Below are positions 1,164-26,822 of a DNA stretch of 64,000 nt, one piece after another. Under the pieces are notes generated by a model. It saw only the letters and a list, made by a program, of their open reading frames with translations, was not told the DNA's origin and did not search any database. A program made the translations under genes and the position numbers. Where the stretch lies: contig DATEGA010000252.1 in assembly GCA_035280345.1 (NCBI GenBank), forward strand, positions 5,836 through 69,835. The letters are read 5' to 3'. The DNA is from a bacterium. GTDB lineage: Bacteria; Sysuimicrobiota; Sysuimicrobiia; Sysuimicrobiales; Segetimicrobiaceae. The stretch's first letter is position 1, and each line of letters begins with the position of its first letter.

Positions 1164-1673
1164 ATGGACACGGCCTGGTATACGGTGCAATCAAAACCGC
1201 ATAACGAAACGCGGGTCGTGCGCCACTTGGCCGGCCGGGACGTTCCGACGTTCCTGCCGTTCCTTGAGGTCGTCCAGCGTCGCACCGGCACATGCCGCAC
1301 GTCTCTCGAACCTCTGTTCCCCGGATACCTGTTTGTCAGGCTTGGGCCGGTGGACCACCAGCCCGAGACATGGAGCACGGTCCGATGGAGTCCGGGTGTC
1401 CGCAGCATCCTCGGCGCCGCCGGACAGCCGGTGCCGGTCCCGGAAGACGCGATCGAAGCCATTCGGGATCGCATGGGCACTCTCGGCTTTGTCCGGCCGG
1501 GCAGGCGGTTTGAACCCGGCGATCGCGTGCGTTTTCGAACGGGTCCGATGGTTGGACTCGAAGCGATTCTGGACCGCCAGGCGTCCAAGGCCGGCAGGGT
1601 GCATGTGCTGTTGTCGCTACTGACGGGTGGAGTTCGGATCGAGACCGACGAACTAGATCTTGAGTCGGCTTGA
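1164..1673 (+). CDS. NusG/RfaH/UpxY/LoaP-family specialised transcription antiterminator (NGN + KOW domains)
   Basis: The N-terminus MDTAWYTVQSKPHNETRVVRHL...PLFPGYLFVRL is the NGN-domain signature (WY.V...G.E, FPGY.FV). The C-terminal FEPGDRVRFRTGPMVGLEAIL is a KOW motif. It sits at the head of a polysaccharide locus, as UpxY/RfaH-type paralogs do. Confidence 0.8.
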   Translation: MDTAWYTVQSKPHNETRVVRHLAGRDVPTFLPFLEVVQRRTGTCRTSLEPLFPGYLFVRLGPVDHQPETWSTVRWSPGVRSILGAAGQPVPVPEDAIEAIRDRMGTLGFVRPGRRFEPGDRVRFRTGPMVGLEAILDRQASKAGRVHVLLSLLTGGVRIETDELDLESA

Positions 1674-1718: not shown

Positions 1719-2966
1719 TTGGGATTCAGGCGCAGTCAACGGCGGAGCCACAGGCGAGCGGCGGCCACCGACAGCCGGATACAAGGGAGTGACAGATTGG
1801 TGAACAAAACACAGCGGCGCGCCGGCGCACGGTCGCTCAGGGTGGGCGTGGCACTGTCCCTGATCGCGCTGCTGGTCGTGGTTTTCGCGATCCCGGGCAG
1901 CGACGCTTCAGCGGCGCCGAAGGAGTACGTCCTTGGGCCTGGCGACGCCGTTGATGTCGTCGTCTATGGGCAGGCTGATCTTTCCGAGATCGTTACCGTG
2001 AAGCCGGACGGCATGATCGCGCTGCCATTGGTTGGACAGGTGAAGGCGGCCGGCCGGACGACGGCACAGTTAGAACAAGACCTCGTCGCGGCGTATCGCA
2101 AGTACCTAAAGGCACCGACCGTTTCTGTGAAGGTCAACCAGTTCCGAACGAATCGGATCTACGTCCTCGGGCAGGTCTTCCACCCTGGTCAATACGAGCT
2201 CAAACCGAGCGCCGGCATCCTGGAGCTGTTGGCGGCCGCCGGCGGTCCCACCACGCGGGCCGACTTGGCCAAAGCGGTGTTGATTCGCGACAAAACCGAT
2301 ACGACACAACTTGACCTGGTCACCGCGATCAAGCAGAGCAAAGACCCCGCGGTCGCGCTGGAACCCGAGGATGTTGTCTACATCCCGGAAACGGACGCGC
2401 GCATCATCGTCCTTGGACAGGTGAACAAACCCGGCGCGTACGACCTGCTGGAGGGGCAGCGCGTCACCGATCTGATCGCGGGTGCCGGGGGGCCCACCGC
2501 CAAGGCCGCGCTGGCGCAGGCCTTCGTCGTCCGCGGTGAGCAGCAGATCCCCGTAGACCTGAAGAAGGCGCTCGCGGGTGATCCCGGCGCCGATATCGTG
2601 CTGCAGCCGCGCGACATGATGGTGGTGCCCGAATCACGCGAGCGTATCGCCGTGCTGGGCGCCGTGAACAAGCCGGGCCCGCAGGACTTCAAGCCGGACA
2701 TGAAGCTGGTGGATGCCATTGCCCTTGCAGGCGGCCAAACCAACAACGCGGATCTCCGCAAGGTGCAGATCATTCGAATCGAGAACGGGCAGGGAAAGAC
2801 GATAAACGTCGACTTCAACAAAGTGCTCCGGGCTCAGGATCCGTCGCAAAACGTTCAGTTGCAGAATGGGGATATTGTCTACGTGTCGCAAAAGGGGTTC
2901 ACGTTGGCTCTGCTCGGCGGGATCGTGAACATTTACTACCTGCTGCGGACCGCGGCGGGGTTCTAG
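1719..2966 (+). CDS. Wza-like outer-membrane polysaccharide export protein (Poly_export + SLBB repeats); true start probably around 1790-1800
   Basis: Signal-like segment LSLIALLVVVFAIPGSDASA, then YVLGPGDAVDVVVYG...DGMIALPLVGQVKAAGRT (Poly_export motif). This is followed by three repeated units of the form VLGQVNKPG / VLGAVNKPG (SLBB-like). Confidence 0.75.
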   Translation: MGFRRSQRRSHRRAAATDSRIQGSDRLVNKTQRRAGARSLRVGVALSLIALLVVVFAIPGSDASAAPKEYVLGPGDAVDVVVYGQADLSEIVTVKPDGMIALPLVGQVKAAGRTTAQLEQDLVAAYRKYLKAPTVSVKVNQFRTNRIYVLGQVFHPGQYELKPSAGILELLAAAGGPTTRADLAKAVLIRDKTDTTQLDLVTAIKQSKDPAVALEPEDVVYIPETDARIIVLGQVNKPGAYDLLEGQRVTDLIAGAGGPTAKAALAQAFVVRGEQQIPVDLKKALAGDPGADIVLQPRDMMVVPESRERIAVLGAVNKPGPQDFKPDMKLVDAIALAGGQTNNADLRKVQIIRIENGQGKTINVDFNKVLRAQDPSQNVQLQNGDIVYVSQKGFTLALLGGIVNIYYLLRTAAGF

Positions 2967-2990: not shown

Positions 2991-4607
2991 ATGGAAGGCC
3001 GGTCGGAGCTCCGTCAGTATTACGAGATTCTGCGACGGCACGTCACGATCATTGCGCTCGTCGTCGCGCTCGCAATCGGCGGTGTGGGTCTGCAGCTCGC
3101 CATCCAGGGGCGGCAGTATCAGGCGGACGTGAGCGTGCTCGTGACGCCTCAGGCCTTCAATGGGGGTCTCGACACGAACCCGAACTTCGCCGCATTTCAG
3201 ACGCAGTACCGCAATCTCGTGATGAACGATATTCTCTACCTCGCCAAGAGCAGCGAGGTGCTCAGGCGGGTGGGGCAGCGGGTTCCGCAAGTTAGTCCGG
3301 CTGCTCTGTACCGTGAGATCAAAGTCACGAACCTTCCCAACACCGACATCGTGGTCGTGAGCGCTCGGGATGGGGTGCGGGACCGCGCCGTCCTCATCGC
3401 CACGGCTACGACCCAGGAACTCGTAGCCTACTACGCGGAGTTGAACCAGGCCGCGGCGGCCGGCACGCGGCAGTTCATCGGGCAGCAGGTCGCCGTCACG
3501 AAGCAGAAGTTGGAAGCCGCGGAGGATAGTCTCCGGGCGTTCAAGACCCAGGCCAACATTGCGGGTCTCCCCGAGACGACCTCACGTATGATCCAGCGAT
3601 CCTTTGAGCTGCAGGCGATGTACAACGCCGCCATGTTAGACGTGCGGGCCGCACAGATGCGCGCCGGTTCCCTGCAGCAGCGGCTCCGATCGGAGAGCGG
3701 CGGTCAGCTTGCGTCGGTCGAGATCGGCACCAACCCCGTGGTCGCCCAGCTGCGCGACCGTCTTATGGCCGCGGAGGCCGACCTCGCGAGTTTGCGTCAA
3801 GTGTACACCGACCAGCATCCCAAAGTGCAGCAGGCGCTCGGTAACGTCGCCGACCTGCGGGCTCGGCTGCGCCAGGAAGCGGCCCAAGCCGCCAGCGATC
3901 GGTCGATCGGCGTGAGCCCGATTCGGGAACAGCTTGTAGCGCAGCTGCTGAACGCTCAAGTCGACGGGGAAGTGGCACAGGCGCGGGCGGAAGCCATCAC
4001 GCCCTTGCTGGGACAGCTTCAGTCGAGTATGAGCCAGCTGCCGACGAACGAATTGACGTTTGCACGGCTCCAGCGGGACGCAAAAGTGAACGAGGATCTG
4101 TATATGCGGCTGTCTGCGCTCTATCAGGACGCCAAGATTGCCGAGCAGAAGGCCGGCGTGTCCGGGCAGGCCGCGCTCGCCACCGTCGATCAGACTGACC
4201 CCAGCCCGGTGTCGTCGCAGTTCCCGCTCAAGGCGGGTCTCGGCGGATTGCTCGGACTGGTCATGGGCTGTGTGCTCGCGCTGCTGGTCGACAACTTGGA
4301 CAATCGCGTCCGGACGCCCGGCGACGCCGAGGGCACCTTCGGCGTTCCTGTCCTTGCGTCCGTTCCCACGATGAACCCTCAAAACCATCGTGCACTCATG
4401 GGTGAGTCAGGCGGTGTGGCGGGCACAGTGGGGATGATCTTGCCGATTGTCATGCCGTTCGTGCTGCCGTTCCTCTTCGTCATGCTTGGAGGGCTTGCCG
4501 TCGGGCTGCTGGTCAGTAAAGCCGGCCCGGTGGTCGGATCTGTCGCGGGACAGGCCGGGATCGCCGTCACCCAGATGCTGCACCACCTGACAGCACTTCT
4601 TGGTTGA
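2991..4607 (+). CDS. polysaccharide co-polymerase / chain-length determinant (Wzz/GumC/ExoP-like) with an unusual extra hydrophobic C-terminal tail
   Basis: RBS ggaggagggag upstream. N-terminal TM (IIALVVALAIGGVGL), a long periplasmic coiled-coil region, a second TM (LLGLVMGCVLALLV) and about 100 aa of extra G/V/L-rich hydrophobic tail. Confidence 0.7.
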   Translation: MEGRSELRQYYEILRRHVTIIALVVALAIGGVGLQLAIQGRQYQADVSVLVTPQAFNGGLDTNPNFAAFQTQYRNLVMNDILYLAKSSEVLRRVGQRVPQVSPAALYREIKVTNLPNTDIVVVSARDGVRDRAVLIATATTQELVAYYAELNQAAAAGTRQFIGQQVAVTKQKLEAAEDSLRAFKTQANIAGLPETTSRMIQRSFELQAMYNAAMLDVRAAQMRAGSLQQRLRSESGGQLASVEIGTNPVVAQLRDRLMAAEADLASLRQVYTDQHPKVQQALGNVADLRARLRQEAAQAASDRSIGVSPIREQLVAQLLNAQVDGEVAQARAEAITPLLGQLQSSMSQLPTNELTFARLQRDAKVNEDLYMRLSALYQDAKIAEQKAGVSGQAALATVDQTDPSPVSSQFPLKAGLGGLLGLVMGCVLALLVDNLDNRVRTPGDAEGTFGVPVLASVPTMNPQNHRALMGESGGVAGTVGMILPIVMPFVLPFLFVMLGGLAVGLLVSKAGPVVGSVAGQAGIAVTQMLHHLTALLG

Positions 4608-5328
4608 GATGTCGGCAGTGGAGCCAGTAGAGCCGCAGCATACGGACACCGCGGGGAGTCCCGGCACGCCACTCTTCACGGCGTACGGCGACAACTCGCC
4701 GTTTGCGGAGGCGTATCGGTCTCTTCGGGTAAGCCTCTTCAGCGGCAACGGCGCCTCGCCGCGGCTGCTTGGCATGACCGGAGCGGCGCCGCGGCACGGG
4801 AGCTCAACCACGGCCGCCAATTTCGGGCTGATTATGGGAGAAACCGGGACACAGGTCGTGCTCGTCGATGCGGATCTCTATAGGCCTTCGCTGCACCGGT
4901 TCTTCAATCTCCCAAACACTGTCGGCCTGTCTTCAGTCTTGGCGGGGGACGTACGTCTGTCCGATGCGCTGCAGCCTATTACACCGCCGTCGCGGCTGAA
5001 GCTTCTGGCAGGCGGCCCCGCAACGCAAAATCCAGCGGCGCTCATGCGGCCGGAGCGGATGAAGAGCATTTTCGATGAGCTGCGCAGCCAAGCCGAGCTT
5101 GTGGTGGTGGATCTTCCGTCAGTGAGCTCTGTAGCGTACACTTCGCAGTTGGCGACTATGCTCGATGGGATCGTTCTCGTGCTGCTGGCCGGCGCCGAAC
5201 CGTCGGACGTGGACCGATTGGTGCGCCGGCGCTTGAAAGGCTCACAACTGGTCGGGATCGTCCTGAATCGGGTTCCGCTGCGGGGGAGCGACGCAACACC
5301 GTACCGGCATTATGCTGATCTGAAATAA
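4600..5328 (+). CDS. BY-kinase (CpsD/CapB/Wzc C-terminal domain) homolog with a degenerate Walker A (likely pseudokinase)
   Basis: LLGMTGAAPRHGSSTTAANFG aligns to the canonical PGEGKSTT P-loop, but the Lys is Ser. Walker A' (VVLVDADLYRP) and Walker B (LVVVDLPSV) are present. The C-terminal Tyr cluster is poor (PYRHYADLK). Confidence 0.7.
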   Translation: MVEMSAVEPVEPQHTDTAGSPGTPLFTAYGDNSPFAEAYRSLRVSLFSGNGASPRLLGMTGAAPRHGSSTTAANFGLIMGETGTQVVLVDADLYRPSLHRFFNLPNTVGLSSVLAGDVRLSDALQPITPPSRLKLLAGGPATQNPAALMRPERMKSIFDELRSQAELVVVDLPSVSSVAYTSQLATMLDGIVLVLLAGAEPSDVDRLVRRRLKGSQLVGIVLNRVPLRGSDATPYRHYADLK

Positions 5329-5336
5329 GGGGAGCG

Positions 5337-5382
5337 AAAGGGGCTGCGCTGCCGTCGCGCGTTGAGCGAGCGCAGCCCCTTT
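5337..5382 (+). terminator. strong stem-loop (perfect 14-bp stem AAAGGGGCTGCGCT / AGCGCAGCCCCTTT, 18-nt loop); putative intrinsic terminator or attenuator with no U-tract
   Basis: Read directly from the sequence in the gap between the BY-kinase homolog and the GHMP kinase gene. Confidence 0.45.
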
Positions 5383-5431
5383 CGTCGAATCTGCAATCGT
5401 TCGCAGCTGAGGAGACGGAGAGGCTAGCGTC

Positions 5432-6499
5432 ATGCTGATTGTCCGTGCACCGGTGCGGATTAGCTTCGCGGGCGGCGGCACCGATTTGGAGAGTTACTAT
5501 CGGCCGTTTGGCGGACTGGTCGTCAGCGCCGCGATCGACAAGTATTTCTACGTCTTTGTGACCGTCAATAAAGGCGAAAGTATCCAGATCATGTCGTCCG
5601 ATTTCCGCACGTTTTACCGGCAGGATGCAGATCAGGAGATGTTGTGGGACGGTGACTTGGCGCTCCCTCGCGCCATCCTCAACTACTTCAACGTCCACGA
5701 GGGGCTCTCGATGTTCCTGGCGTCGCAGGTGCCGCCAGGCACCGGTCTCGGTTCTTCCAGCACCGTCGCGGTCGCCGTGATCAAGGCCCTCACGAGCCTG
5801 CAGGGTCTCGCGTTATCGAAGCAGGAGATCGCCGAGTTGGCCTGTTCGATCGAAATCGAGAAACTCGGCATGCCAATCGGCAAACAAGATCAGTATGCGG
5901 CGGCGTTTGGGGGCATCAACGGGATCGCCTTTGAACACGACGGTGTCTCGGTCCATCCTCTCAGGCTTTCGCCCGATGTCCTGGAGCGACTCGAGCGCAA
6001 TGTGCTCCTATTCTATACCGGCGTGGCCCGGGATGCCGCGAAGGTACTCACCGAACAAAATCAGGCAACGCTCAACCGTTCCGCCGGGGTGATCGAGTCC
6101 TTGCACGCGATCAAGGGAATGGCGATGGAGGTCGGTCAGTGCTTTGAGCGGGGGGACCTCCGAAAGCTCGGTGAACTGCTGCACACATCGTGGGAGTACA
6201 AGAAAAAGCTCTCGGCCGGGATCACCAATGCGTGGATCGACGAGTGCTACGAGACGGCGCGCTGTCACGGGGCAATCGGCGGCAAGATAACCGGGGCCGG
6301 AGGTGGCGGCTTCCTCATGCTCTACTGCGAAGAGCGAGGAGCGCCCGCGGTGACCGAGGCTCTGGGCCGGCTCGGCCTCAAGCGAATGGACTTCTCCGTG
6401 GACTTCGATGGCGCGAAGATCCTGGTGAACAACGGCATTCCGTTTCAAATGCTGGGGCAGGGAAGGCGCGCCGGCGAGGTCGCCGTTGTGAACGGGTGA
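5432..6499 (+). CDS. GHMP-family sugar kinase, HddA-like (D-glycero-D-manno-heptose 7-phosphate kinase-like)
   Basis: MLIVRAPVRISFAGGGTDL N-terminus and the PPGTGLGSSSTVAVAV GHMP ATP-binding motif. RBS ggagacggagagg upstream. Confidence 0.6.
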   Translation: MLIVRAPVRISFAGGGTDLESYYRPFGGLVVSAAIDKYFYVFVTVNKGESIQIMSSDFRTFYRQDADQEMLWDGDLALPRAILNYFNVHEGLSMFLASQVPPGTGLGSSSTVAVAVIKALTSLQGLALSKQEIAELACSIEIEKLGMPIGKQDQYAAAFGGINGIAFEHDGVSVHPLRLSPDVLERLERNVLLFYTGVARDAAKVLTEQNQATLNRSAGVIESLHAIKGMAMEVGQCFERGDLRKLGELLHTSWEYKKKLSAGITNAWIDECYETARCHGAIGGKITGAGGGGFLMLYCEERGAPAVTEALGRLGLKRMDFSVDFDGAKILVNNGIPFQMLGQGRRAGEVAVVNG

Positions 6500-7875
6500 T
6501 GCCCAGGGCCGATCGGCACGTCATGATCTTGGGGTTGATCGGGGTCGACGTGCTGGCGCTGACGATCGCCGGGGCTCTGACCTCAAAGCTTCTGCCGTTC
6601 GATATCCTGGCAGCGGGCCGGGGAGCGTCCCAGTTTCTGCTGGTGGCGGCGCTTCCGGTGGCCATCGGTTTGTTTGCAGCCAATCGCCTCTATGTCCTCG
6701 ACGAGCTTCTGGAGGGGCCCATCGAGTACGGGCGGATCGTCTATGCCTGTACGCTCACGACGTTCGGGCTGAGCGTAATCGGGTTCTGGTGGCGTGATGT
6801 GGATGCGCTCGCCCCGTCGCGCCGGCTCGTGACGGCTCTCTGGTTTCTCTCGATTCTGGCCGCGGTGACGGGGCGGTTCATCGTGCGCCGCGTCGTGCGG
6901 GCGCTGCGCCGCCGAGGGTTGCTGACGACGCGCACGCTGATCGTCGGCCTCGGCGCCCAGGGGTTGTCGTTGTGCCGGCACTTTCGCGAGCTCCGGCACG
7001 CGGGGGTTGAGGTCGTCGGGTTCATCGACGACTTCCTCCCGGCAGGGACGCCCGTGGTCGACGGACTCAAGGTACTTGGCCCTCCGAGCGCTCTGCCGGC
7101 GGTCTTGCGTGAGACCGGCGCCGGCGACGTGATCGTGGTGCCGACGGCTATGGCCTGGGAGAGTTTCCACGACCTCATTCGTGATACCGCCACGTTGAAT
7201 GGGCACACCGTGCGCCTCACGCCGGGATTCCGCGATATCCTGGCCGCGAACATAAAAGTGCATCATTTCGGATCGATGCCGTTGCTGACGATCGAGCGGG
7301 CGCGTATTACAGGGCTCGAGGCCGTCCTGAAACGGCTCGTGGACTACACGCTTGCCGCCGTGCTGCTGCTATTCAGCCTGCCGATCCTTGCTACCGTGGC
7401 GATAGTGCTTCGCGCCAAGGGAGTGCGGGTATTTTCTCGCGTCGCCACGATTGGACGTGGCGGGCGAACCTTTCAGGCCGTGGTGTTCAACGCATCGGAC
7501 CCCGACAATGGCTTCCAGCGCGCAGCGGTGCGGCTCGGGCTCGACAAGGTCGTACAGCTCTGGAACGTGCTGTGCGGCCGGATGAGCATCGTCGGTCCTC
7601 GCCCCGTCCCTGTTCATCGGCGCCGTGAATATGAGCGCTGGGTGCCGAACCTGTTGACCGTCAAGCCGGGTGTCACCGGACCGTGGGCGCTGACCGGCGT
7701 CCGTCTCCCTTTGGACGACGAGATGCAGGCGACCCTGTTCTACATCCGCAACTACACCATTTGGCTGGATCTCGAAATTGTCGTTCGATCTATCCTCCGG
7801 GTGCTCCGCGGTCGCGCGGTCCCCGACCACACGAGTGAGCCGGTCCGCCGTGACGCCGTCACAGTACATCAGTAG
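6499..7875 (+). CDS. undecaprenyl-phosphate sugar phosphotransferase, WbaP/WcaJ-like (large polytopic priming PGT with CoA-binding-like domain)
   Basis: TGATG overlap with the upstream gene. N-terminal TM helices, a Rossmann-like LIVGLGAQG segment, and a C-terminal bacterial sugar-transferase motif IVGPRPVPVHRRREYERWVPNLLTVKPGVTGPWAL. Confidence 0.75.
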   Translation: MPRADRHVMILGLIGVDVLALTIAGALTSKLLPFDILAAGRGASQFLLVAALPVAIGLFAANRLYVLDELLEGPIEYGRIVYACTLTTFGLSVIGFWWRDVDALAPSRRLVTALWFLSILAAVTGRFIVRRVVRALRRRGLLTTRTLIVGLGAQGLSLCRHFRELRHAGVEVVGFIDDFLPAGTPVVDGLKVLGPPSALPAVLRETGAGDVIVVPTAMAWESFHDLIRDTATLNGHTVRLTPGFRDILAANIKVHHFGSMPLLTIERARITGLEAVLKRLVDYTLAAVLLLFSLPILATVAIVLRAKGVRVFSRVATIGRGGRTFQAVVFNASDPDNGFQRAAVRLGLDKVVQLWNVLCGRMSIVGPRPVPVHRRREYERWVPNLLTVKPGVTGPWALTGVRLPLDDEMQATLFYIRNYTIWLDLEIVVRSILRVLRGRAVPDHTSEPVRRDAVTVHQ

Positions 7876-8464
7876 CCTGCGCGAGGCGCTCGCCAAGGTG
7901 TCGGTTTCGGACCTTCGCGAGATCGAAGACGTGCTCTTCGACGCGTGGCGCCACGGGCGCACGATCTTCATCGCCGGGAACGGTGGCAGCTCGTCAACCG
8001 CCTCGCATTGGACCAACGACCTCAACAAGGGAGCGATTACCGCGGGGGGACGTCGATTTCGCGCGATGGCGCTCACCGACAACGTGCCGCTGATTACCGC
8101 GTGGGGCAATGACACCGCGTACGAGCGGATCTTCGTCGAGCAAATGACGAACTTCATCCAGCCTCACGATGTGTTCGTCGCCATCAGCGGCAGCGGAAAC
8201 TCGCCCAATATCCTTGCGGCCGTGCAATGCGCGCGGAGCGCGGGCGCCGTCACGGTCGGCCTGACCGGCCGCGACGGTGGCCAACTGCGGGTCCTCGCCG
8301 ACCACGCAGTGGTGGTCCCGGCACACTACATGGAGATCATCGAAGACGTCCATTTGGCGCTCTCGCACCTGCTCTGCACGGCGCTGCGGGCGAGGATTGC
8401 CGCACCGATGCCCGCGGGCGAGGCGATCCCCGTCACGCAAACGATGTCCCGACCGGAGGCGTGA
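7835..8464 (+). CDS. SIS-domain phosphoheptose isomerase, GmhA-like (GTG start at 7835 or 7850)
   Basis: TIFIAGNGGSSSTASHWTNDL ... VFVAISGSGNSPNIL ... VGLTGRDGG match the GmhA SIS motifs. Confidence 0.65.
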   Translation: MSRSAVTPSQYISSLREALAKVSVSDLREIEDVLFDAWRHGRTIFIAGNGGSSSTASHWTNDLNKGAITAGGRRFRAMALTDNVPLITAWGNDTAYERIFVEQMTNFIQPHDVFVAISGSGNSPNILAAVQCARSAGAVTVGLTGRDGGQLRVLADHAVVVPAHYMEIIEDVHLALSHLLCTALRARIAAPMPAGEAIPVTQTMSRPEA

Positions 8465-8466
8465 TC

Positions 8467-9225
8467 ATGAAAGCCATCCCAGACCCTGTCATCAACAGCA
8501 GCGAGCCCGATTCGAGCTTGGGGCACATGCCGGACGGCCGGTGGGCGTTTGACGCCAACGTGACGCAGGTGTTCGACGATATGCTCCGGCGATCGATCCC
8601 GCAATACGATGTCATGCGCCAGGCCGTGTACGATGTCGGATGCAAGTTCATCAAGCGCGATACGGATATCGTCGATCTGGGGTGCGCCAGGGGCGAGGCG
8701 CTGGCCCCATTCGTCGACCGATTCGGCGCGCAGAACCGCTACCTGGGTGTCGAGGTGAGTGAGCCGATGCTCGCCGCGACACGGCAGCGCTACGCCGGCC
8801 TTATCAACACCGGTGTCATGCGGGTGCAAAACAGCGATCTCCGGTACACGTATCCGCTCGCCAAGGCGAGTCTCACCCTGTCCATCTTCACCGTCCAGTT
8901 CGTGCCGATCGAGTACCGGCCGCGGCTGCTCGCCGACGTGTTCGCGTCGACCGTTCCCGGCGGTGCGATTGTCCTGGCGGAAAAGATCATCGGATCCACC
9001 GGCGCTAACGATCGCCTCTTTGTCGATCTCTACTACGATATGAAGCGCCGCAACGGCTACAGCCAGGACGAAATAGACCGCAAGCGGTTCTCGCTGGAGG
9101 GCGTGCTCGTGCCCGTCACCGCGAAGTGGAACGAAGATCTCCTTCGTGAAGCGGGTTTTTCGCGGGTTGAGAATTTCTGGCGGTGGATGAATTTTGGCGC
9201 GTGGCTGGGCGTCAAGCCTGCGTGA
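8467..9225 (+). CDS. CmoA-family SAM-dependent enzyme (carboxy-S-adenosyl-L-methionine synthase homolog)
   Basis: ATGA overlap with gmhA-like stop. Colinear similarity to E. coli CmoA across the whole length: WAFDANVTQVFDDMLRRSIPQYD, DLGCARGEA, FTVQF...RPRLL, PGGAIVLAEK, MKRRNGYSQDEIDRKRFSLE, AGFSRVENFWRWMNFGAWLGVK. Confidence 0.6.
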   Translation: MKAIPDPVINSSEPDSSLGHMPDGRWAFDANVTQVFDDMLRRSIPQYDVMRQAVYDVGCKFIKRDTDIVDLGCARGEALAPFVDRFGAQNRYLGVEVSEPMLAATRQRYAGLINTGVMRVQNSDLRYTYPLAKASLTLSIFTVQFVPIEYRPRLLADVFASTVPGGAIVLAEKIIGSTGANDRLFVDLYYDMKRRNGYSQDEIDRKRFSLEGVLVPVTAKWNEDLLREAGFSRVENFWRWMNFGAWLGVKPA

Positions 9226-9241
9226 GCGTTGCGTACCGGGC

Positions 9242-10141
9242 GTGAGCAACAGGAGCGCGACGGTCATCGAACAGCCTGGGTGGCAGCCCGCAGTCGCTTC
9301 AACAGGATCGCGGGCCGAAGAAGTACCCGCGATCCGGGTCGAGCCGTCGAAGGGGTGGGCTGCGCTCCAGCTCCGCGAGGCGTGGAAGTCTCGAGAGCTC
9401 TTGTATTTTCTCGTTTGGCGGGATGTCACAGTCCGCTACAAGCAGACGGTGTTTGGGGTGCTGTGGGCGGTTTTCCAGCCGTTGTTTGGGACAGTGGTCT
9501 TCACCCTGTTTTTCGGCCGGTTGGCCAAGATGCCCTCGGACGGCGTGCCGTACCCGTTGTTCGCTTATGCCGCATTGGTGCCGTGGACGTTTTTTGCCAA
9601 CGGCTTGAACCAGATTTCCAACAGCCTCGTACGCGATGCCAATCTCATCACGAAAGTGTACGTACCGCGGCTTCTGATCCCGTTCGCGGCCGCCGTCGCT
9701 GGGTTGGTCGATTTTCTCGTGGCATTTGTTATTCTGCTCGGCATGATGGTCCTCTACCGAACGCCGCCGACGGCGAACATTATCTTCCTACCGTTCCTTG
9801 CCCTGCTGGCGCTGGCGACGTCGATCAGTGTGGGTCTCTGGTTGTCGGCGCTGAACGTGCAGTTCCGCGATGTGCGATACGTCCTGCCGTTCGTGGTGCA
9901 GGCATGGCTCTTCGCCACACCGATCGTATATCCGAGCAGTCTACTGCCGGCGCGGTGGCGCCTGGTGTACGGGCTGAATCCGATGGTCGGCGTAGTAGAA
10001 GGCTTTCGATGGGCCCTCTTGGGGACGCATACCCGTCCCGGCGGCATGATTATCGTTTCAGCGCTCACGGTAGTTGGCCTGTTGATCGGCGGGATGATCT
10101 ACTTCCGGCGGACGGAAAGTAAGTTCGCCGACGTGGTCTAG
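9242..10141 (+). CDS. ABC-2 type polysaccharide exporter permease (Wzm/KpsM-like)
   Basis: LREAWKSRELLYFLVWRDVTVRYKQTVFGVLWAVFQPLF is the ABC-2 N-terminal signature, followed by six hydrophobic segments. The start (GTG near 9242) is uncertain. Confidence 0.75.
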   Translation: MSNRSATVIEQPGWQPAVASTGSRAEEVPAIRVEPSKGWAALQLREAWKSRELLYFLVWRDVTVRYKQTVFGVLWAVFQPLFGTVVFTLFFGRLAKMPSDGVPYPLFAYAALVPWTFFANGLNQISNSLVRDANLITKVYVPRLLIPFAAAVAGLVDFLVAFVILLGMMVLYRTPPTANIIFLPFLALLALATSISVGLWLSALNVQFRDVRYVLPFVVQAWLFATPIVYPSSLLPARWRLVYGLNPMVGVVEGFRWALLGTHTRPGGMIIVSALTVVGLLIGGMIYFRRTESKFADVV

Positions 10142-10159: not shown

Positions 10160-11470
10160 GTGAGCGGTCGCGCAGTCCGGGTCGAAAATCTCTCGAAACA
10201 ATACGTGCTGGGGCAGTGGCGGGCTCACGACACGCTCCGCGATCACCTGACTCGCACGTTCTCAGTGTTCTCGCGTGCGCCGCGCGAGCGGCAACAGCCG
10301 GAGACGATTTGGGCGCTTCGGGATGTGTCATTCGACGTCCAGCGCGGCGAAGTCGTTGGGATTATCGGAAACAACGGCGCGGGGAAGAGCACCCTTCTCA
10401 AAATTCTCTCCCGCATTACCGAGCCTACGGGCGGCTACGCGGAGATCCACGGGCGCGTGGGCTCTTTGCTGGAGGTTGGGGCTGGGTTTTTCCATGCGGA
10501 GCTCACGGGACGGGAAAATATCTATCTCAGCGGCGCGATCCTCGGAATGAAGAAGAGCGAGATAGACCGGAAGCGAGACGACATCATAGAGTTCGCCGGC
10601 ATCGAGCGGTTCATCGACACGCCCGTGAAACGCTATTCCACCGGGATGAACATGCGACTAGCGTTTTCGGTTGCCGCGCATCTCGATCAAGAGATCCTGT
10701 TCGTCGACGAAGTGCTCGCGGTCGGCGATGCGGAATTCCAACGAAAGTGCCTCGGGCGGATGGGGGAGGTATCCCGCGCGGGACGAACGGTGCTGTTCGT
10801 GAGCCACAACATGGCTGCGATCACCCATCTGTGTCCGCGCACACTGTGGCTGAAAGGCGGCCGGGTACATGCCGATGGCGCGTCGACAGATGTCGTATCG
10901 GCATACTTATCGGCTGGCCAGGGCGCCGGATCAGCGTGGCGCAATCCTTCCTCCAATCGCCCCTCCATGGACGGCGCATTCCGGGTGGGGGCGGCGCGTG
11001 TGCTCGCTGAAGACAACCGTCCTGCGAGCGTCATGGAGTTCCGGCGACCGTTTAAATTCGAGATAGAGTATGAGATCCTGCGACCGTTGAAGGATGTCGC
11101 GGTTGTTGTGAGGGTGATTAATTCGATCGGCGAGCACCTCTGGACGTCGTGGGACACCGATCCGGATCGCTGGGATAGCGGCTTGGTGAGAATGCCGGGA
11201 CGCTATGTCTCCGTGTGCAGAGTCCCGCCGCACTTCCTGAAGCCCGGACCGTACCGCGTCGACGTCGGTGCGCGCAGCGCGACGCCGCCGTACGAACTGC
11301 ACGAAAGTGTTCTGGCGTTTGAAATATCCGAGGTCGGATACGCGCTCCATCCCGACCGCGTAGGCGTGATCGCCCCGTTACTCGGCTGGGACGTGACGCG
11401 TGTCGACGAGGCGCACGGTCGCCTCTCCGAGTCAAGTTCTGAGCCTATAAGTGTTGAGGCAGCCCGATGA
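10160..11470 (+). CDS. ABC exporter ATP-binding protein Wzt-like with an extended C-terminal (putative glycan-terminus-binding) domain
   Basis: Walker A GIIGNNGAGKST, ABC signature YSTGMNMRLAFSVA, Walker B ILFVDEVLAVGD, plus about 180 extra C-terminal residues. Confidence 0.75.
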   Translation: MSGRAVRVENLSKQYVLGQWRAHDTLRDHLTRTFSVFSRAPRERQQPETIWALRDVSFDVQRGEVVGIIGNNGAGKSTLLKILSRITEPTGGYAEIHGRVGSLLEVGAGFFHAELTGRENIYLSGAILGMKKSEIDRKRDDIIEFAGIERFIDTPVKRYSTGMNMRLAFSVAAHLDQEILFVDEVLAVGDAEFQRKCLGRMGEVSRAGRTVLFVSHNMAAITHLCPRTLWLKGGRVHADGASTDVVSAYLSAGQGAGSAWRNPSSNRPSMDGAFRVGAARVLAEDNRPASVMEFRRPFKFEIEYEILRPLKDVAVVVRVINSIGEHLWTSWDTDPDRWDSGLVRMPGRYVSVCRVPPHFLKPGPYRVDVGARSATPPYELHESVLAFEISEVGYALHPDRVGVIAPLLGWDVTRVDEAHGRLSESSSEPISVEAAR

Positions 11471-14797: not shown

Positions 14798-15988
14798 ATG
14801 CGCGTGCTTGTGACTGGTGGTGCGGGATTCATCGGGTCACATACCGTCGATGCGCTGCTCCAAAAGGGGTATCAAGTGCGAATCCTTGACGCACTGCTGC
14901 CACCCGTACACAGTGGCGCCATTCCAAACTACATTCCGAGGGACGAAGTGGACATCGTGGTGGGGGATGTGAGCCAACGGTGCTCCTGGGAGAAGGCGCT
15001 GGAGGGAGTGGATGTCGTTTTCCATTTGGCCGCGCATCAGGGCTACTTACCAAATTTCTCGGCATTCTTCCAAACGAACACGATTTCGACGGCGCATCTC
15101 TACGAAGTTATTGTTGACAAACGACTGGACATTCGCAAAATTGTCATCGCCTCGTCCCAGGCCGTTTATGGTGAGGGCCGCTACTCGTGTGAGCAGCCGC
15201 ATTCCGCTGATTCCCATCCGGTTCTAAGGGAAGAGAGCCAGTTACGCAGAGGACTCTGGGAAATCCTATGTCCCAAGTGTGGGACGCCCATGCTACCACA
15301 GTGGATCGACGAGACAATCGTTAATCCCCATAATCAGTACGCTGTGAGCAAGAATACGCAGGAACTGATCGGACTGACGCTGGGACGTAGATACGGTATT
15401 CCCACCGTTTGCCTTCGCTATTCGATCGTTCATGGTCCGCGTCAATCGTTTCGAAATGCCTATTCCGGCGTTCTGCGGATCTTCACACAGCGTGTGCTTA
15501 ATGGGAAGCCTCCTGTTTGCTACGAAGACGGAAGACAGCTTCGCGATTACGTGTCGGTCCACGATGTCGTTCGGGCTAATTTGTTGGTGCTCGACGATCC
15601 TCGCGCTGATTTCGAAGCGTTCAACGTCGGAGGGAACTGCAGGGTTTCGGTACTTGATTATGCTCATCTAATCGCGCGGCGCGTTGGGAAGTGCATTGAA
15701 CCATCGGTCCCCGGAACATACCGGTTTGGTGACGTGCGCCACATACTATCCGATGTTGCAAAGCTTAGTGCCCTGGGTTGGCACCCTCAGGTTTCTCTCG
15801 AAAGCATCGTCGACGAATACACTGCCTGGGCAACGGAGCAACCCGATTTTCGAGATTACTATGAAGAGGCCGAGGCGCGGATGGCGGCTGTTGGAACGAT
15901 CCGCAAGGCAGTCTCTTTTCAAAGTCGTATGGAGCCGAAAAGTGCTGATTCGACGGATGATATGATATCCGTTGCGGCGCTGCCGTGA
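14798..15988 (+). CDS. NAD-dependent sugar epimerase/dehydratase (extended SDR) with a Cys-containing insertion
   Basis: MRVLVTGGAGFIGSH Rossmann motif and YAVSK catalytic motif. An internal insertion of about 45 aa carries ...SCEQPH...CPKCG.... RBS ggagga upstream. Confidence 0.75.
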   Translation: MRVLVTGGAGFIGSHTVDALLQKGYQVRILDALLPPVHSGAIPNYIPRDEVDIVVGDVSQRCSWEKALEGVDVVFHLAAHQGYLPNFSAFFQTNTISTAHLYEVIVDKRLDIRKIVIASSQAVYGEGRYSCEQPHSADSHPVLREESQLRRGLWEILCPKCGTPMLPQWIDETIVNPHNQYAVSKNTQELIGLTLGRRYGIPTVCLRYSIVHGPRQSFRNAYSGVLRIFTQRVLNGKPPVCYEDGRQLRDYVSVHDVVRANLLVLDDPRADFEAFNVGGNCRVSVLDYAHLIARRVGKCIEPSVPGTYRFGDVRHILSDVAKLSALGWHPQVSLESIVDEYTAWATEQPDFRDYYEEAEARMAAVGTIRKAVSFQSRMEPKSADSTDDMISVAALP

Positions 15989-17481
15989 GCACTGGAGAGC
16001 TTTCGAGATCCCAACGTCCGAGCGGGCTGCTCCTATTAGTGCCGGCCGTATGTGTGGTGGCACTTGGTTGGCTAGTTGCGGCCGCACCGCCCGTTTGGGC
16101 TTTTGCCGCCATTGCGGGGGTATTGTTTCTGATAGTCTTCTTGCAGCGGCCAGACGTTGGCCTACTCGTTGCGTTGGTCGTCCGGTCGTTCACCGATCTC
16201 AGTATTAGCCACATTCGAGCATCAGCGCCCGGCGAAGTGTACTCTTCCCCACTTAACATCGGGTTGATTCTCATCGTGATCGTCGCGGGCGGTATCTTCC
16301 TGTTGAGTCGCGGTACGCCGCTCTTTCGGCTTCCTGGAGGAACGTCTTACGTAGTTTTGGCACTGATCGGACTTGTCGGTTTCGTCCGCGCCGTTGAGGT
16401 TGCCCACACTGAGGGCTTTCTGTACGGAATGGAACACTGGCTGCGTATCGTGAGCGTTTTGATAGTGTACGCCCTGGCGGCAGAGGTTTTTAACAGTGCG
16501 CAGCATGTGCCGGCGGTAATCAAGGCTCTGGCAATGGCATTCCTGATTCCTGCCCTCTTCGGCTTCTACCAGATCGCGAGTGCCCATGGGGGTTTAGGTA
16601 GAGAAGTACAACCTATTACCGGGACATTCGCGGTTCAAGGCAACTTCGCTGTTTTTCTTGTATTCATGCTGGGCGTATTCTTGTGCTACGGTCTGGCTCA
16701 CTCCGGCTTGCGCCGCGCCTGGGCATTGGGTATTGTCGGGGCCTCTGTGGTGTTATTGGTCGCGACTTATGCTCGTACCGCGTGGGTCGGAGTCATGATT
16801 TTCTTGCTTGTAATTGGAGTACTAAAAAAGCGTGTCTTTCTGGTGCTGGCGCCCCTCGTGGCAGTCATCGCGGTCATTGCCCTGCCGTCCGTGTCCTCTC
16901 GTCTCGAAGGCTCATTCAGTTCCTCCGAAGGAAGCTTCGCAGATCGACTAGGCATTTGGCGAACCACGGGCCCGGCATGGCTGGAGTACACCAGCGATTC
17001 GGCGGGTCCGGTCTCGACTGCAGTGAATCGCCTTATTGGCACCGGCCCAGGGTCGAGCCAGTTTCTTGTTTCCTCCGCCTACGGTATGGTGAATGCCGAG
17101 CACAATGATTTTCTTACGGCACTGTTTGAGTACGGCATCATCGGGTTGACCGCTTATCTGGCTTTGTATCTCGCCATTTGGTCTTCTGCGTATCGGACGT
17201 GGCGGCGGTGCACCGATGAGGAGACCGCTTCGTTGCCTCTGGCATTCCTTGCCCTTATTCCGAGTTTCATGGTCATGAGCCTCACGGATGTTGTGTTTGG
17301 CCAGACTCAGAACCAGATCTATTTCTGGACGTTGGCTGGCTTGACCGTGGCCATAAGTCGGCGAATCCGTGACGGCGAACGGACTTCACCGAAGGGCCTC
17401 GACGTCGGCCCGACACGGGCGCACACGGATCTAGCTGGAATCTATCCCTCCCGGATCTCATCTCGCGCGGGCGCTGGCTGA
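15985..17481 (+). CDS. Wzy/WaaL-family (O-antigen ligase / polymerase-like, Wzy_C domain) polytopic membrane protein
   Basis: Ten or more hydrophobic helices and a periplasmic loop. The motif NAEHNDFLTALFEYGIIGLTAYLALY matches the Wzy_C signature (H-N-[DY]-[FY]L-x-L-x-E-x-G-[IL]-[IL]-G). Confidence 0.65.
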   Translation: MSTGELSRSQRPSGLLLLVPAVCVVALGWLVAAAPPVWAFAAIAGVLFLIVFLQRPDVGLLVALVVRSFTDLSISHIRASAPGEVYSSPLNIGLILIVIVAGGIFLLSRGTPLFRLPGGTSYVVLALIGLVGFVRAVEVAHTEGFLYGMEHWLRIVSVLIVYALAAEVFNSAQHVPAVIKALAMAFLIPALFGFYQIASAHGGLGREVQPITGTFAVQGNFAVFLVFMLGVFLCYGLAHSGLRRAWALGIVGASVVLLVATYARTAWVGVMIFLLVIGVLKKRVFLVLAPLVAVIAVIALPSVSSRLEGSFSSSEGSFADRLGIWRTTGPAWLEYTSDSAGPVSTAVNRLIGTGPGSSQFLVSSAYGMVNAEHNDFLTALFEYGIIGLTAYLALYLAIWSSAYRTWRRCTDEETASLPLAFLALIPSFMVMSLTDVVFGQTQNQIYFWTLAGLTVAISRRIRDGERTSPKGLDVGPTRAHTDLAGIYPSRISSRAGAG

Positions 17482-24980: not shown

Positions 24981-26822
24981 TTAGAACAACCCTTGAGTGA
25001 TCCATGCCCAAATGCTGCGCGGGAACCGAGGAATATAATAGGACGACCTCCCATTTCCACCACCCCACGTTGAGCCAAACATTGGCGCCAGCGGCGCTAG
25101 TAAGGTGCCGTCTCCGCCGTCGAGTTTATAACCACCCTGCGGAGCGCCACCATTGTGGTTGCTGTTTGTAATGACTTGGAGTTGGCGGGCAATGATAGTG
25201 AGATCGTTACTAAACGCGCTACTGGTAGGTAACTCGTTCCGCGCAGTATAGTCCATATACAGCACTATACCGTTAGCGTTGCCAACATCTCGGACATATC
25301 CACCGTACCACTGAAATGCCTTCGCAATATTCATGCCTTGAGATGTTTGGAGTCCGAGACTGCCCAAGTTGACTGACGCGGGAATGGCAAGGAGGGAACC
25401 CATCGTAAAGTTTCCTCCGGACCCACGATTCACGGTGCTGGTGCTCGAATCAGGCCAGACGAAGCCGGGGGAGAGGTAAAGAGAGTTCGTCGCCATCGCT
25501 AGTGCATGACGAATGCCCGCCGCGAGTTCTCCTGACCGAATCAGGCCCCCGAGGTGTGGCATCCCTCCTTCCGTCGTCACGCCGTCAGGATTGAGTGTGC
25601 TTCCGGAGACGTTGTTCGGGGCTTTGGGGGCGGGCGTGGCTTCGACGCCGGAATTTACCCAAATTGATGGAGCCGTCTGCCCGATTCCCGGTCCCTTAAG
25701 ATCGTAGTTGTCGGCCCCTGCATAGGCATTGTATGTGCTTCCACTATAAGACGAGACATGGAAATCCATGCTCGTTAGGTGGTCCGGGGTGACGACACTC
25801 ATCGCCGCGTCCGAGTCCGGCGATGGTACGGCCCCAGAAGGGATGTTCCGGGGAAACACATTAGTCCCATAGTAGTTCGTTGGACCTCCCACGGAGGTTC
25901 GGTCGCCCCGAATGATTGAACCCAGAGGATCGCTGGTCTGCGCAACGTAGACCGGGAATGTCCACGCGCCCGCGTTGATGTTGATGCTCCCAAAGCCGGT
26001 CCCGCCGTCGCCTCGCAGAACGGTCGCGTACCTCGCGTTAGAGCCTATAGGGTAGTTCCAGGGTGAGTATGTGGAGAAGGGCCAGTACCCGGGATCGCGC
26101 GACGTTGTCGTTGCAGTACTGGTCGGGGCAGCTGCAGTGTTTGTCGTTACCGCCACCGTAGCGGGGGATGAGACACTTGCCACAGAGTTTTGCGCGGTGA
26201 GGGTGTAGGTGGTCGTCGCCTGAGGAAGTACAGTCAGTGTGCCACTTGCCGGAACGCTTGTGCCATTGAGCGTGACGGTAGTCGCGTTTGAAGTTGTCCA
26301 GGATAGTGTGCTCGACTGGCCGGACAAGATGGCCGTAGGGGATGCTGAGAGGGCTGCCGTCGGCACCAGCGTCGTTGCGGTGTTGGTGGTAGTTGTTGTC
26401 GTGCTTGTAGGGATTGTGGTCGAGGGCGCGGACACCGCCACGTTGGCAGACACAACGACTGTTCCGTTGTCGTTGGCAGCCGTAAGAACATAGCTCGTGG
26501 TTTGTGCCGGCTTAACCTGTCGCGAACCCTGCTTCGAGACCGATACGCCGTTGAGAGTAACTGAGTTCGCGCGCCAGGTGGTCCAGTAAAGCGTCGACGT
26601 TCCTCCCTGGCTGATGCTTCCCGGGGAAGCTGAAACACGCGCATATGGCAAAGGATGCTGGACGTCATCGGCCTGGGCGTCCCGGAAGCGCGACGGCCCT
26701 GGCGACAGAAACAGCATGACAAAGGCGAGTATAAGACCGATCGCTCGCGTTCGCGGGAACCATCTCCGCCGCCGCTTGGACGAAAGGGCGGGGGTGATGT
26801 GGTCAACAAAAGGCCGACACAT
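24981..26822 (-). CDS. secreted/anchored protein with two tandem Ig-like (about 90 aa) repeats, Thr-rich linkers and an uncharacterised C-terminal domain of about 370 aa; candidate glycan-active enzyme
   Basis: N-terminal hydrophobic anchor (AIGLILAFVMLFLSP). The repeats are SASPGSISQGGTSTLYWTTWRANSVTLNGVSV... and SASPTAILSGQSSTLSWTTSNATTVTLNGTSV.... Linkers such as TSTTTTTTNTATT. The C-terminal domain is G/S/N-rich with no recognisable motif. Confidence 0.5.
   Translation of the reverse strand: MCRPFVDHITPALSSKRRRRWFPRTRAIGLILAFVMLFLSPGPSRFRDAQADDVQHPLPYARVSASPGSISQGGTSTLYWTTWRANSVTLNGVSVSKQGSRQVKPAQTTSYVLTAANDNGTVVVSANVAVSAPSTTIPTSTTTTTTNTATTLVPTAALSASPTAILSGQSSTLSWTTSNATTVTLNGTSVPASGTLTVLPQATTTYTLTAQNSVASVSSPATVAVTTNTAAAPTSTATTTSRDPGYWPFSTYSPWNYPIGSNARYATVLRGDGGTGFGSININAGAWTFPVYVAQTSDPLGSIIRGDRTSVGGPTNYYGTNVFPRNIPSGAVPSPDSDAAMSVVTPDHLTSMDFHVSSYSGSTYNAYAGADNYDLKGPGIGQTAPSIWVNSGVEATPAPKAPNNVSGSTLNPDGVTTEGGMPHLGGLIRSGELAAGIRHALAMATNSLYLSPGFVWPDSSTSTVNRGSGGNFTMGSLLAIPASVNLGSLGLQTSQGMNIAKAFQWYGGYVRDVGNANGIVLYMDYTARNELPTSSAFSNDLTIIARQLQVITNSNHNGGAPQGGYKLDGGDGTLLAPLAPMFGSTWGGGNGRSSYYIPRFPRSIWAWITQGLF

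Follow-up and report, generated by a model that had tools for sequence, protein, structure and literature searches.

Can a homolog of the bacterial tyrosine kinases (BY-kinases) that has lost the lysine of its Walker A motif still serve the polysaccharide co-polymerase (PCP) next to which it is encoded, and would it do so as an enzyme or as a scaffold? BY-kinases are thought to drive the assembly of capsules and exopolysaccharides through cycles of Tyr autophosphorylation, which make and break the PCP octamer. The question is raised by a stretch of 64,000 nucleotides from a bacterium of the Segetimicrobiaceae (assembly GCA_035280345.1, contig DATEGA010000252.1, positions 5,836 to 69,835; hereafter the window), in which a PCP gene is directly followed by a stand-alone BY-kinase-like gene whose product was described, in a first-pass annotation made from the DNA letters, as a probable pseudokinase. 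We put at roughly 70% the probability that this protein is a BY pseudokinase acting on its PCP as a scaffold, independently of phosphorylation. It is favoured because the Walker A Lys is replaced by Ser and is missing from all the related sequences of its clade (0/85) while present in all canonical homologs compared (36/36), because the Walker A' Arg, Asp180 and the Glu of the NPxEL motif have also been lost clade-wide, and because published Walker A Lys mutants of BY-kinases are inactive. The fold of the protein, its residue losses, their conservation throughout the clade, the synteny of the locus, a PCP with three transmembrane (TM) segments and the lack of another kinase gene or of a phosphatase gene nearby are established here.

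A BY-kinase fold without the Walker A lysine

Gene callers start the BY-kinase-like gene at ATG 4609, a start chosen in three independent assemblies in which the protein is identical, while the longest open reading frame (ORF; 4600..5328, + strand) begins with a TTG at 4600 and codes for 242 aa; residue numbers given here refer to this longer frame. The frame is intact and its third-codon-position G+C content (GC3) is typical of coding DNA. The ATG lies one base beyond the TGA stop codon of the PCP gene (4605-4607), and the fact that the two genes abut or overlap suggests that their products are translated together.

The best NCBIfam match of the protein was TIGR01007, 'polysaccharide biosynthesis tyrosine autokinase' (E 4e-28), at a score of 98.3 bits that lies under the curated cutoff of 108.05. 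The remaining BY-kinase models were far under their own cutoffs, and all NCBIfam matches were to BY-kinase and MinD-type models. Additionally, the closest structures found with phmmer in the PDB were the CapA/CapB chimeras (4jmp/3bfv/2ved; E 1.4e-25). BceF, Etk, Wzc and VpsO came next, and a MinD structure trailed at E 4.5e-10. An AlphaFold2 (AF2) model built from 41 sequences of the clade (predicted local distance difference test, pLDDT, 82; predicted template-modelling score, pTM, 0.80) superposed on CapA2B2, CapAB, Wzc, Etk, BceF and VpsO with TM-scores of 0.7-0.8 and root-mean-square deviations (rmsd) of 1.5-2.6 A, and every one of the top 50 Foldseek matches was a BY-kinase (CapA2B2, TM-score 0.77/0.81, rmsd 1.7). 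The protein has the P-loop NTPase fold of the MinD/SIMIBI type found in CapB, Wzc and Etk, and both this fold and the change of the Lys to Ser are secure.

The protein belongs to a clade that was sharply delimited in a search of 5.8 billion proteins, where 84 clusters at 49-100% identity were followed by a fall to <=40%. All 84 clusters carry G..P.HG[S/A/G][S/T]TT and end in ..sYRxYa, and from the 85th match onward the sequences read EGK[S/T]TT and have Tyr-rich tails. In a library clustered at the 50% identity level, the clade was reduced to one representative (373 bits) and a fragment, the next match scoring 226 bits, and on these sequence comparisons it is a compact lineage. Its named members are 'Armatimonadota bacterium' metagenome-assembled genomes (MAGs), and matches among species representatives comprised one Armatimonadetes RBG MAG, a pair of MAGs given as 'bacterium' without classification, and a MAG that bears the label Bacillota. 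The closest canonical BY-kinases in the databases are <=40% identical and, where named, come from other phyla (Anaerolineales, Bathyarchaeia). NCBI and JGI call the clade members 'CpsD/CapB family tyrosine-protein kinase' or 'protein-tyrosine kinase', names that are probably wrong as statements of activity.

The residue losses were read from a MAFFT alignment of the query and 120 homologs, divided into the clade (n=85) and a canonical outgroup (n=36). The phmmer alignment to CapB runs without gaps over strand beta1, the P-loop and the next helix ('TGAAPRHGSSTTAAN' on 'TSEAPGAGKSTIAAN') and places Ser68 at CapB K55, with His66 two residues earlier. Position 68 is Ser in 62, Ala in 20 and Gly in two of the clade sequences, and position 66 is His in 83 of 84, as against Glu in 35 of the outgroup, giving a clade consensus of G.TG..P.HG[SAG][ST]TTAAN. 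A basic residue at -5 relative to the missing Lys is found in 5% of the clade and the P-loop has no other conserved basic residue; the whole protein contains only four Lys (K134, K155, K213, K242), none of them in or near the P-loop sequence. The first-pass annotation was right, then, that the Lys is missing and that the Glu ahead of it has become His. The checks it suggested on orthologs and on a neighbouring Lys also supported it: orthologs share the substitution, and no neighbouring Lys fills its place.

Its further claim that the Walker A' and B motifs are retained holds for their acidic residues only. D90 and D92 of Walker A' are each found in 85/85 clade sequences (outgroup 35/36 and 36/36), and D171 of Walker B is invariant after four hydrophobic residues. 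The Arg that ends the Walker A' motif hhhhDxDxR (R36/36 in the outgroup) has been replaced at position 94 by Tyr (41 sequences), Leu (31), His (10) or Met (2) and is never present in the clade, and the D[S/T]PP of the outgroup Walker B reads D[L/M]PS. The loss of the Walker A' Arg was rejected as an independent proof of inactivity, canonical EGK kinases of Chloroflexi and Actinobacteria reading DADLH[K/R]P at this site. Furthermore, position 180, nine residues past the Walker B Asp, is Tyr in 83 clade sequences and Asp in 36/36 of the outgroup; position 147, the NPxEL Glu in all 36 outgroup sequences, is Ala (68) or Ser (8); and position 81 is Glu in all 85 as against Gln in 34 of the outgroup. 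At the C-terminus, which reads ...PYRHYADLK, the Tyr cluster is indeed down to two residues, as had been proposed. Y235 and Y238 are each present in 80 of the 81 clade sequences that reach this end, together with R236 in 72, an Arg that is not conserved in the outgroup, where the tails are Tyr-rich (YYYY..). The canonical definition of a BY-kinase (BYKdb; TIGR01007) does not extend to this protein, which has neither the Lys nor the Walker A' Arg nor a Tyr cluster and scores under the curated cutoff.

These changes do not look like decay. The four segments of lowest entropy in the clade, which has 30 invariant columns, are the oligomerisation motif (O-motif), the P-loop, Walker A' and Walker B, with SPFAEAYRxLR of the O-motif the most conserved and the P-loop second, and all the Asp and Thr ligands of Mg and phosphate are held under strong constraint. 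Because the motif segments are the lowest-entropy part of the clade, the alignment indicates strong purifying selection on the remodelled site; constraint was gauged here by column conservation, the relatives with fetched DNA being 50-69% identical and their synonymous sites probably saturated.

The likely consequence of the Lys loss can be judged from engineered BY-kinases. Wzc K540M, VpsO K551A and ExoP K589I have lost both ATPase and kinase activity (PMC9800525), and by analogy with these mutants we infer a loss of catalysis in the clade. Wzc K540M still binds ATP-Mg, closes and forms an octamer with Mg2+ or ATP-Mg, and the K-to-M mutants of both CapB and Wzc still bind nucleotide-Mg (PDB entry titles; PMC9800525). 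With these mutants binding nucleotide and the ligand residues kept in the clade, the earlier description of the protein as impaired in ATP binding is not established.

The partner co-polymerase and a proposed phosphorylation-independent scaffold

The partner PCP consists of TM1 (~12-40), a periplasmic coiled-coil domain and TM2 (~411-438; AF2 secondary structure), followed by a cytoplasmic peptide and a further hydrophobic segment, and carries no P-loop or kinase domain. Its gene lies immediately upstream of the BY-kinase-like gene in every relative examined. Six aligned PCPs all show TM1, a long coiled-coil periplasmic domain, TM2, the peptide, the third hydrophobic segment and a short variable tail. 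The consensus of the peptide in these six is ...D.RVR....AEG.[F/Y]G[V/I/L]PVL..[I/V]P.M..., and the motif G[VIL]PVL..P was found in 39 of 47 PCP homologs, an undercount given the strict pattern. By analogy with CapA/CapB and with EpsV/EcpK (PMC12004946), residues 439-470 are the predicted docking site for the BY-kinase-like protein.

The unusual hydrophobic tail that the first-pass annotation had noticed in this PCP turned out to be a general feature of its relatives. The third segment is present in 46 of 47 PCP homologs of 33-100% identity, the sole exception being a partial record, in all six aligned loci, and also in the PCP of a distant sister locus (L039). It is missing from distant two-TM PCPs (P0325-P0331; 482-484 aa), which end ~30 residues past G.PVL, and likewise from the CapA-like proteins that partner canonical stand-alone kinases in a Chloroflexaceae and a Mahellales MAG (L015, L016), which end within ~10 residues of the equivalent G.xTLG.IP motif. 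The segment is real, conserved and specific to PCPs paired with the Lys-less protein. It would cross the membrane as a TM3, and since it comes after the docking peptide, this peptide would be anchored in the membrane on either side.

No partner enzymes for a phosphorylation cycle were found near the pair. A tblastn search of the 64 kb window with five canonical BY-kinases matched only 4.6-5.3 kb, a six-frame scan of the same window gave no signature C-x-G-N-x-C-R-S of a protein tyrosine phosphatase of low molecular weight (LMW-PTP), and phosphatase Pfam families were found neither among its ~50 ORFs nor in the flanks (8-10 kb per side) of seven related loci (L001, L004, L007-L010, L039). A ParA-like gene upstream of the NusG paralog in one relative (L009, 5197-5991) was considered as a canonical kinase and discarded, its product being an Mrp/ApbC-type ATPase with the motif GKGGVGKST.

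In the mechanism that we propose, the BY-kinase-like protein would be made together with its PCP and would dock on the ~30-residue cytoplasmic peptide after TM2. In canonical BY-kinases the ExxRxxR motif builds the ring and the Tyr tail of each subunit inserts into its neighbour (PMC9800525). With its retained ExxRxxR interface the protein would probably form the same cytoplasmic ring as unphosphorylated canonical BY-kinases, and the fixed YRxY tail may fill the remodelled active-site pocket of the neighbouring subunit. The PCP oligomer would be held together for chain-length control and for the hand-over of the polymer to Wza, with no cycle of autophosphorylation and dephosphorylation. The remodelled P-loop HG[S/A][S/T]TT and the Walker Asps suggest a bound ligand, most simply nucleotide-Mg2+, which would act as a conformational latch and not as a substrate.

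Several points weigh against this proposal. The two Walker A' Asps, the Walker B Asp, the P-loop Thr/Ser and the two invariant Tyr are more than a pure scaffold should need, and the acidic, P-loop and Tyr residues kept in the alignment would leave space for residual or altered chemistry. Clade-specific basic residues are also found beyond the P-loop ([R/K]134 in 95%, R210 in 99% and R236 in 90%). Additionally, pLDDT falls below 50 in the TM3 region of the AF2 model of the PCP, and a canonical BY-kinase or a phosphatase could sit elsewhere in the genome, the searches having covered the 64 kb window and flanks of <=10 kb.

Other readings and related systems

The Lys is also missing outside the clade. 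Among the 149 best 50%-cluster representatives that follow it, a sample biased to Lys-less sequences by the query profile, 56 lack the Lys. Most of these are domains of what we call the Q-type, reading T[A/G][K/R]PGQG[G/A/S]T[T/S]T and fused to PCPs of 700-1000 aa (P0128-P0268), and in them the Walker A' Arg and the O-motif are still present and the tail reads VDSxxYHxxYYP. Like the clade, they have a neutral residue (Gln or His) in place of the Glu before the missing Lys and end in a [D/E]-S-x-x-Y...Y motif, often with an extra hydrophobic segment; a TM segment after the domain was found in 17 of the 56 Lys-less proteins and in 1 of the 93 canonical ones. They differ from the clade in having the Walker A' Arg and Asp180, in being mostly fused to the PCP, and in carrying Lys or Arg at -5 in 87% of cases, as compared with 2% of canonical kinases and 5% of the clade. 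This -5 position is what we take to be the 'signature' Lys site of the deviant Walker A motifs of MinD/ParA-type proteins, and the Q-type domains may, to judge from their sequences, be relocated-lysine enzymes rather than pseudokinases, for which the WNK kinases with their relocated Lys offer an analogy. All seven Q-type members sampled, five of them fused, score above the TIGR01007 autokinase cutoff, and their activity names are probably wrong too. In a rough neighbour-joining tree the clade and its stand-alone sisters P0126 and P0127, in both of which the Lys is missing, position -5 is Arg, the Walker A' Arg is present and the tail has YRxY, nest in an all-Lys-less group of 69 leaves, a grouping that may be inflated by convergent active-site residues. 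If it holds, the Lys loss would be old and the clade would be the most degenerate of its offshoots, and a split one. The PCP of P0126 has the third TM segment as well. A homology search that yielded mostly canonical kinases also gave one fragment that resembles the Q-type and is labelled Armatimonadota.

With these relatives in view, the clade and the larger Lys-less 'PGQG' group could be regarded not as dead enzymes but as a distinct functional class of BY-kinase-fold proteins, an idea that we hold to be improbable. It could take the form of a hydrolysis-incompetent nucleotide-Mg2+ latch in a YRxY-locked ring, doubly anchored by the three-TM PCP; alternatively, the missing charge could be supplied in trans by Arg236 of the neighbour's tail in the clade and, by analogy with the WNK kinases, by the -5 Lys in the Q-type. 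If it were true, many database 'tyrosine autokinases' would follow a different rule.

Equally doubtful is an active kinase or ATPase with a non-canonical P-loop whose two conserved Tyr are true autophosphorylation sites and whose catalytic charge comes from His66, from the clade-specific Arg/Lys at 134 or 210, or from a neighbour's Arg236 in trans. The remodelled P-loop, the Walker A' Asps and the Walker B Asp rank with the best-conserved stretches of the clade, His66 is invariant (83/84), the two Tyr stand at fixed positions, conserved basic residues specific to the clade exist, and the basic -5 residue of the wider Lys-less group makes a relocation of the charge plausible in this family. However, the clade itself is basic at -5 in only 5% of sequences and, in addition to the Lys, no longer has the Walker A' Arg, Asp180 or the NPxEL Glu, all BY-kinase Lys mutants tested were inactive (PMC9800525), no cognate phosphatase lies near, unlike in typical BY-kinase loci, and two Tyr at set positions do not resemble the redundant Tyr clusters acting as phospho-acceptors.

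Less likely still is a catalytically dead adaptor whose YRxY Tyr receive phosphate in trans from a canonical BY-kinase or from a Hanks-type kinase encoded elsewhere, which would leave the system under phospho-regulation. Such a role could account for the two near-invariant Tyr, the O-motif would permit hetero-oligomers with a canonical BY-kinase, and the genome has been seen in part (the window and flanks). Against it, neither the 64 kb nor the flanks of the seven related loci yielded a candidate kinase or phosphatase, the closest canonical BY-kinases are the distant ones of other phyla mentioned above, and M. xanthus EcpK acts independently of two bona fide BY-kinases (PMC12004946).

Two further explanations are refuted. 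A decaying pseudogene or a sequencing or assembly artefact of an ordinary BY-kinase, to which the TIGR01007 score under the curated cutoff might point, conflicts with the identical protein in three independent assemblies, with 85 clusters bearing the same substitutions and 30 invariant columns, and with the intact frame, typical coding GC3 and top conservation of the motif regions. A positioning or Fe-S ATPase of the MinD/ParA/Mrp type, suggested by weak ParA/CbiA matches as the only Pfam hits and by MinD models at 1e-11, is contradicted by the far better BY-kinase scores (TIGR01007 4e-28 and CapB 1e-25 vs MinD 4.5e-10) and the all-BY-kinase Foldseek list, by the lack of a deviant Walker A KGGxGK[S/T], with neither its signature nor its P-loop Lys, and by the BY-kinase-specific ExxRxxR motif and the PCP partner.

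A BY pseudokinase that scaffolds a PCP has precedents. Pairs in which a stand-alone BY pseudokinase binds the cytoplasmic C-terminal end of a PCP-2 without a kinase domain are known from Myxococcus xanthus (EcpK/EpsV) and Caulobacter crescentus (HfsB/HfsA); EcpK is missing all three Walker motifs, and both EcpK and HfsB have no C-terminal Tyr (PMC12004946). The pair in the window resembles them in combining a stand-alone BY-kinase fold without catalytic residues with a kinase-less PCP-2 and an outer-membrane polysaccharide export (OPX) protein in a diderm, in the PCP C-terminal peptide as the predicted dock, and in the phosphorylation-independent scaffolding that has been proposed. In contrast to EcpK, our protein aligns clearly to CapB (E 1e-25) and keeps the Walker Asps, the P-loop Gly and Thr, ExxRxxR and two Tyr, and it differs from the described pairs in its invariant P-loop His, in adjoining the PCP gene and in the third TM segment of its PCP. 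The PCP gave no match to the EpsV model of NCBIfam (NF041864) at E <= 0.01, and by sequence the pair is not an ortholog of the described ones. It has the architecture of a bipartite BY pseudokinase/PCP-2 pair and is a distinct lineage of an already published kind.

The best match in sequence and structure is to the F-type pairs CapA/CapB of S. aureus, CpsC/CpsD and TkmA/PtkA (PCP-2b), with which it shares the PCP or adaptor gene directly upstream of a protein of ~230 aa, the O-motif and a ...G.P.L..IP docking peptide in the adaptor. It departs from them in the change of the Walker A Lys to Ser and of the Walker A' Arg to Tyr, in the two Tyr that stand for the cluster, in having no adjacent phosphatase equivalent to CapC/CpsB, and in a large, periplasmic, PCP-2a-like PCP (538 aa) with an extra TM segment and a Wza in a diderm. 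Regarding fused PCP-2a proteins, BY-kinase-like domains without Walker motifs and/or Tyr cluster are likewise linked to chain-length control in PssP2, PssP and GumC, which are single polypeptides. R. leguminosarum PssP2 is unphosphorylated and without any of the motifs (PMC4182512), while PssP retains the motifs but not the Tyr cluster. For Xanthomonas GumC the term 'pseudo-BY-kinase' has been used (PMC9800525), and the survey of Cuthbertson 2009, as cited in PMC12004946, adds S. meliloti SMc01795 and others as degenerate fused PCP-2a proteins.

The same position as in the clade has been changed in the engineered Wzc K540M, CapB K55M, VpsO K551A and ExoP K589I (PMC9800525; PDB 2ved, 3la6, 7nhr), of which Wzc K540M has been described as stabilising the oligomeric state (PMC9800525). 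These are laboratory point changes of canonical enzymes, mostly non-functional in vivo, whereas the change in the clade is natural and ancient, is accompanied by further substitutions and is evidently compatible with function. A natural loss of the catalytic Lys with the interface, the metal-ligand acids and the tail kept tests which parts of the phosphorylation cycle are dispensable, and as a natural 'K-to-X' experiment the clade is cleaner than EcpK, in which nothing recognisable is left. The concept of a phosphorylation-independent BY pseudokinase/PCP-2 pair is nevertheless not new (PMC12004946), and the gain is incremental.

The polysaccharide island

Features of the module are collected in Table 1. 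The window (62% G+C) holds one long plus-strand polysaccharide island, from ~1.1 kb to 45.5 kb, that begins with this module.

Table 1. Coordinates in the window of the genes and motifs of the module
Feature	Position	Strand	Evidence or remark
NusG paralog, module head	1164..1673	+	Pfam NusG 71.6 bits; same place in six loci
Wza-type OPX protein	1800..2966	+	Poly_export and 3x SLBB; TIGR03027 196 bits, above cutoff; longest ORF from 1719
Partner PCP, 538 aa	2991..4607	+	Pfam Wzz and GNVR; TIGR03007 152 bits, below cutoff
PCP cytoplasmic segment after TM2, residues 439-470 (DNRVRTPGDAEGTFGVPVLASVPTM...)	4305..4400	+	Counterpart of CapA's C-terminal peptide, the dock and activator of CapB
PCP third hydrophobic segment, residues ~473-515	4407..4535	+	AF2 helix 479-509
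PCP short C-terminal helix, residues 519-537	4545-4601	+	AF2
Stand-alone BY-kinase-like gene	4609..5328	+	239 aa from ATG 4609, as gene callers have it
O-motif E37-x2-R40-x2-R43 on helix alpha2	4708..4728	+	E84/84, R84/84, R82+K2 in the clade
Degenerate Walker A loop G58-N74 (GMTGAAPRHGSSTTAAN)	4771..4821	+	His66 = CAC 4795-4797; Ser68 = AGC 4801-4803
Walker A' region VVLVDADLYRP	4855..4887	+	D90, D92 present; motif Arg changed to Tyr94
Walker B LVVVDLPS	5098..5121	+	D171 present, following residues altered
C-terminal P-Y235-R236-H-Y238-A motif	5299..5316	+	Clade consensus sYRxYa; replaces the Tyr cluster
Stable hairpin directly after the BY-kinase-like stop codon	5341..5383	+	RNA fold of 5325-5400
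GHMP kinase	5432-6499	+	Pfam, synteny
Large phosphoglycosyl transferase (PGT)	~6499-7875	+	Pfam, synteny

The order NusG paralog, Wza, PCP (520-547 aa), BY-kinase-like protein, GHMP kinase and large PGT is kept in five relatives at 51-58% identity (L001, L007, L008, L009, L010), with a small PGT inserted ahead of the GHMP kinase in L007. A SIS-domain (GmhA-like) gene follows the module in three of these syntenic relatives, and a GerE-type response regulator precedes it in four. The Wza, PCP and BY-kinase-like core is also kept in the window's own assemblies (L004-L006) and in the distant sister L039.

The hairpin behind the BY-kinase-like gene precedes the GHMP kinase gene and is unusually stable (-40.9 kcal/mol for 5325-5400, z -3.8, with 0 of 200 shuffles as stable), with a weak U tract only, and went unreported in the terminator scan, where a stronger U tract is required. 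Together with the conserved NusG paralog at the module head, it suggests a possible antitermination-controlled operon.

Pfam families in the ~50 window ORFs include glycosyltransferases, methyltransferases, sugar-nucleotide enzymes, a Wzy_C protein and a WecG-family transferase. The island contains a glycan pathway of the ABC-transporter type, with Wzm at 9194-10141 and a Wzt with Wzt_C at 10160-11470 (called on the identical contig L004), a methyltransferase just upstream of Wzm (8227-9225), a Wzy_C/ligase-like protein (15985-17481) and an APH-like phosphotransferase (35981-37657). No Pfam match to a Wzx flippase was found among the window ORFs tested, and in L001 a Wzx comes after the same module. 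Since L001 has Wzx and the window has Wzm/Wzt, the Wza, PCP and BY-kinase-like module is joined to different assembly routes.

In the window and in L001 and L007-L010 the large PGT is flanked by the GHMP kinase and a SIS-domain (GmhA-like) protein (7778-8464 in the window), and in the relatives an NTP_transferase is added, accompanied or not by a HAD phosphatase. The GHMP kinase, SIS and NTP_transferase set looks like a pathway for nucleotide-activated heptose, and the exported polymer may contain heptose. Furthermore, between ~14800 and 28100 GC3 is clearly lower than in the rest of the island. This stretch carries genes for an epimerase, Wzy_C, WecG, several GT4 enzymes and an FkbM methyltransferase, together with a 613-aa ORF without a Pfam match (24981-26822, - strand), and it is possibly a horizontally acquired, serotype-specific block. 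Lastly, a diguanylate cyclase-like CBS-GGDEF protein and a GerE-domain response regulator are encoded past the island (55133-56485, - strand, and 57565-58851, + strand); they are possible cyclic di-GMP or two-component inputs to polysaccharide production.

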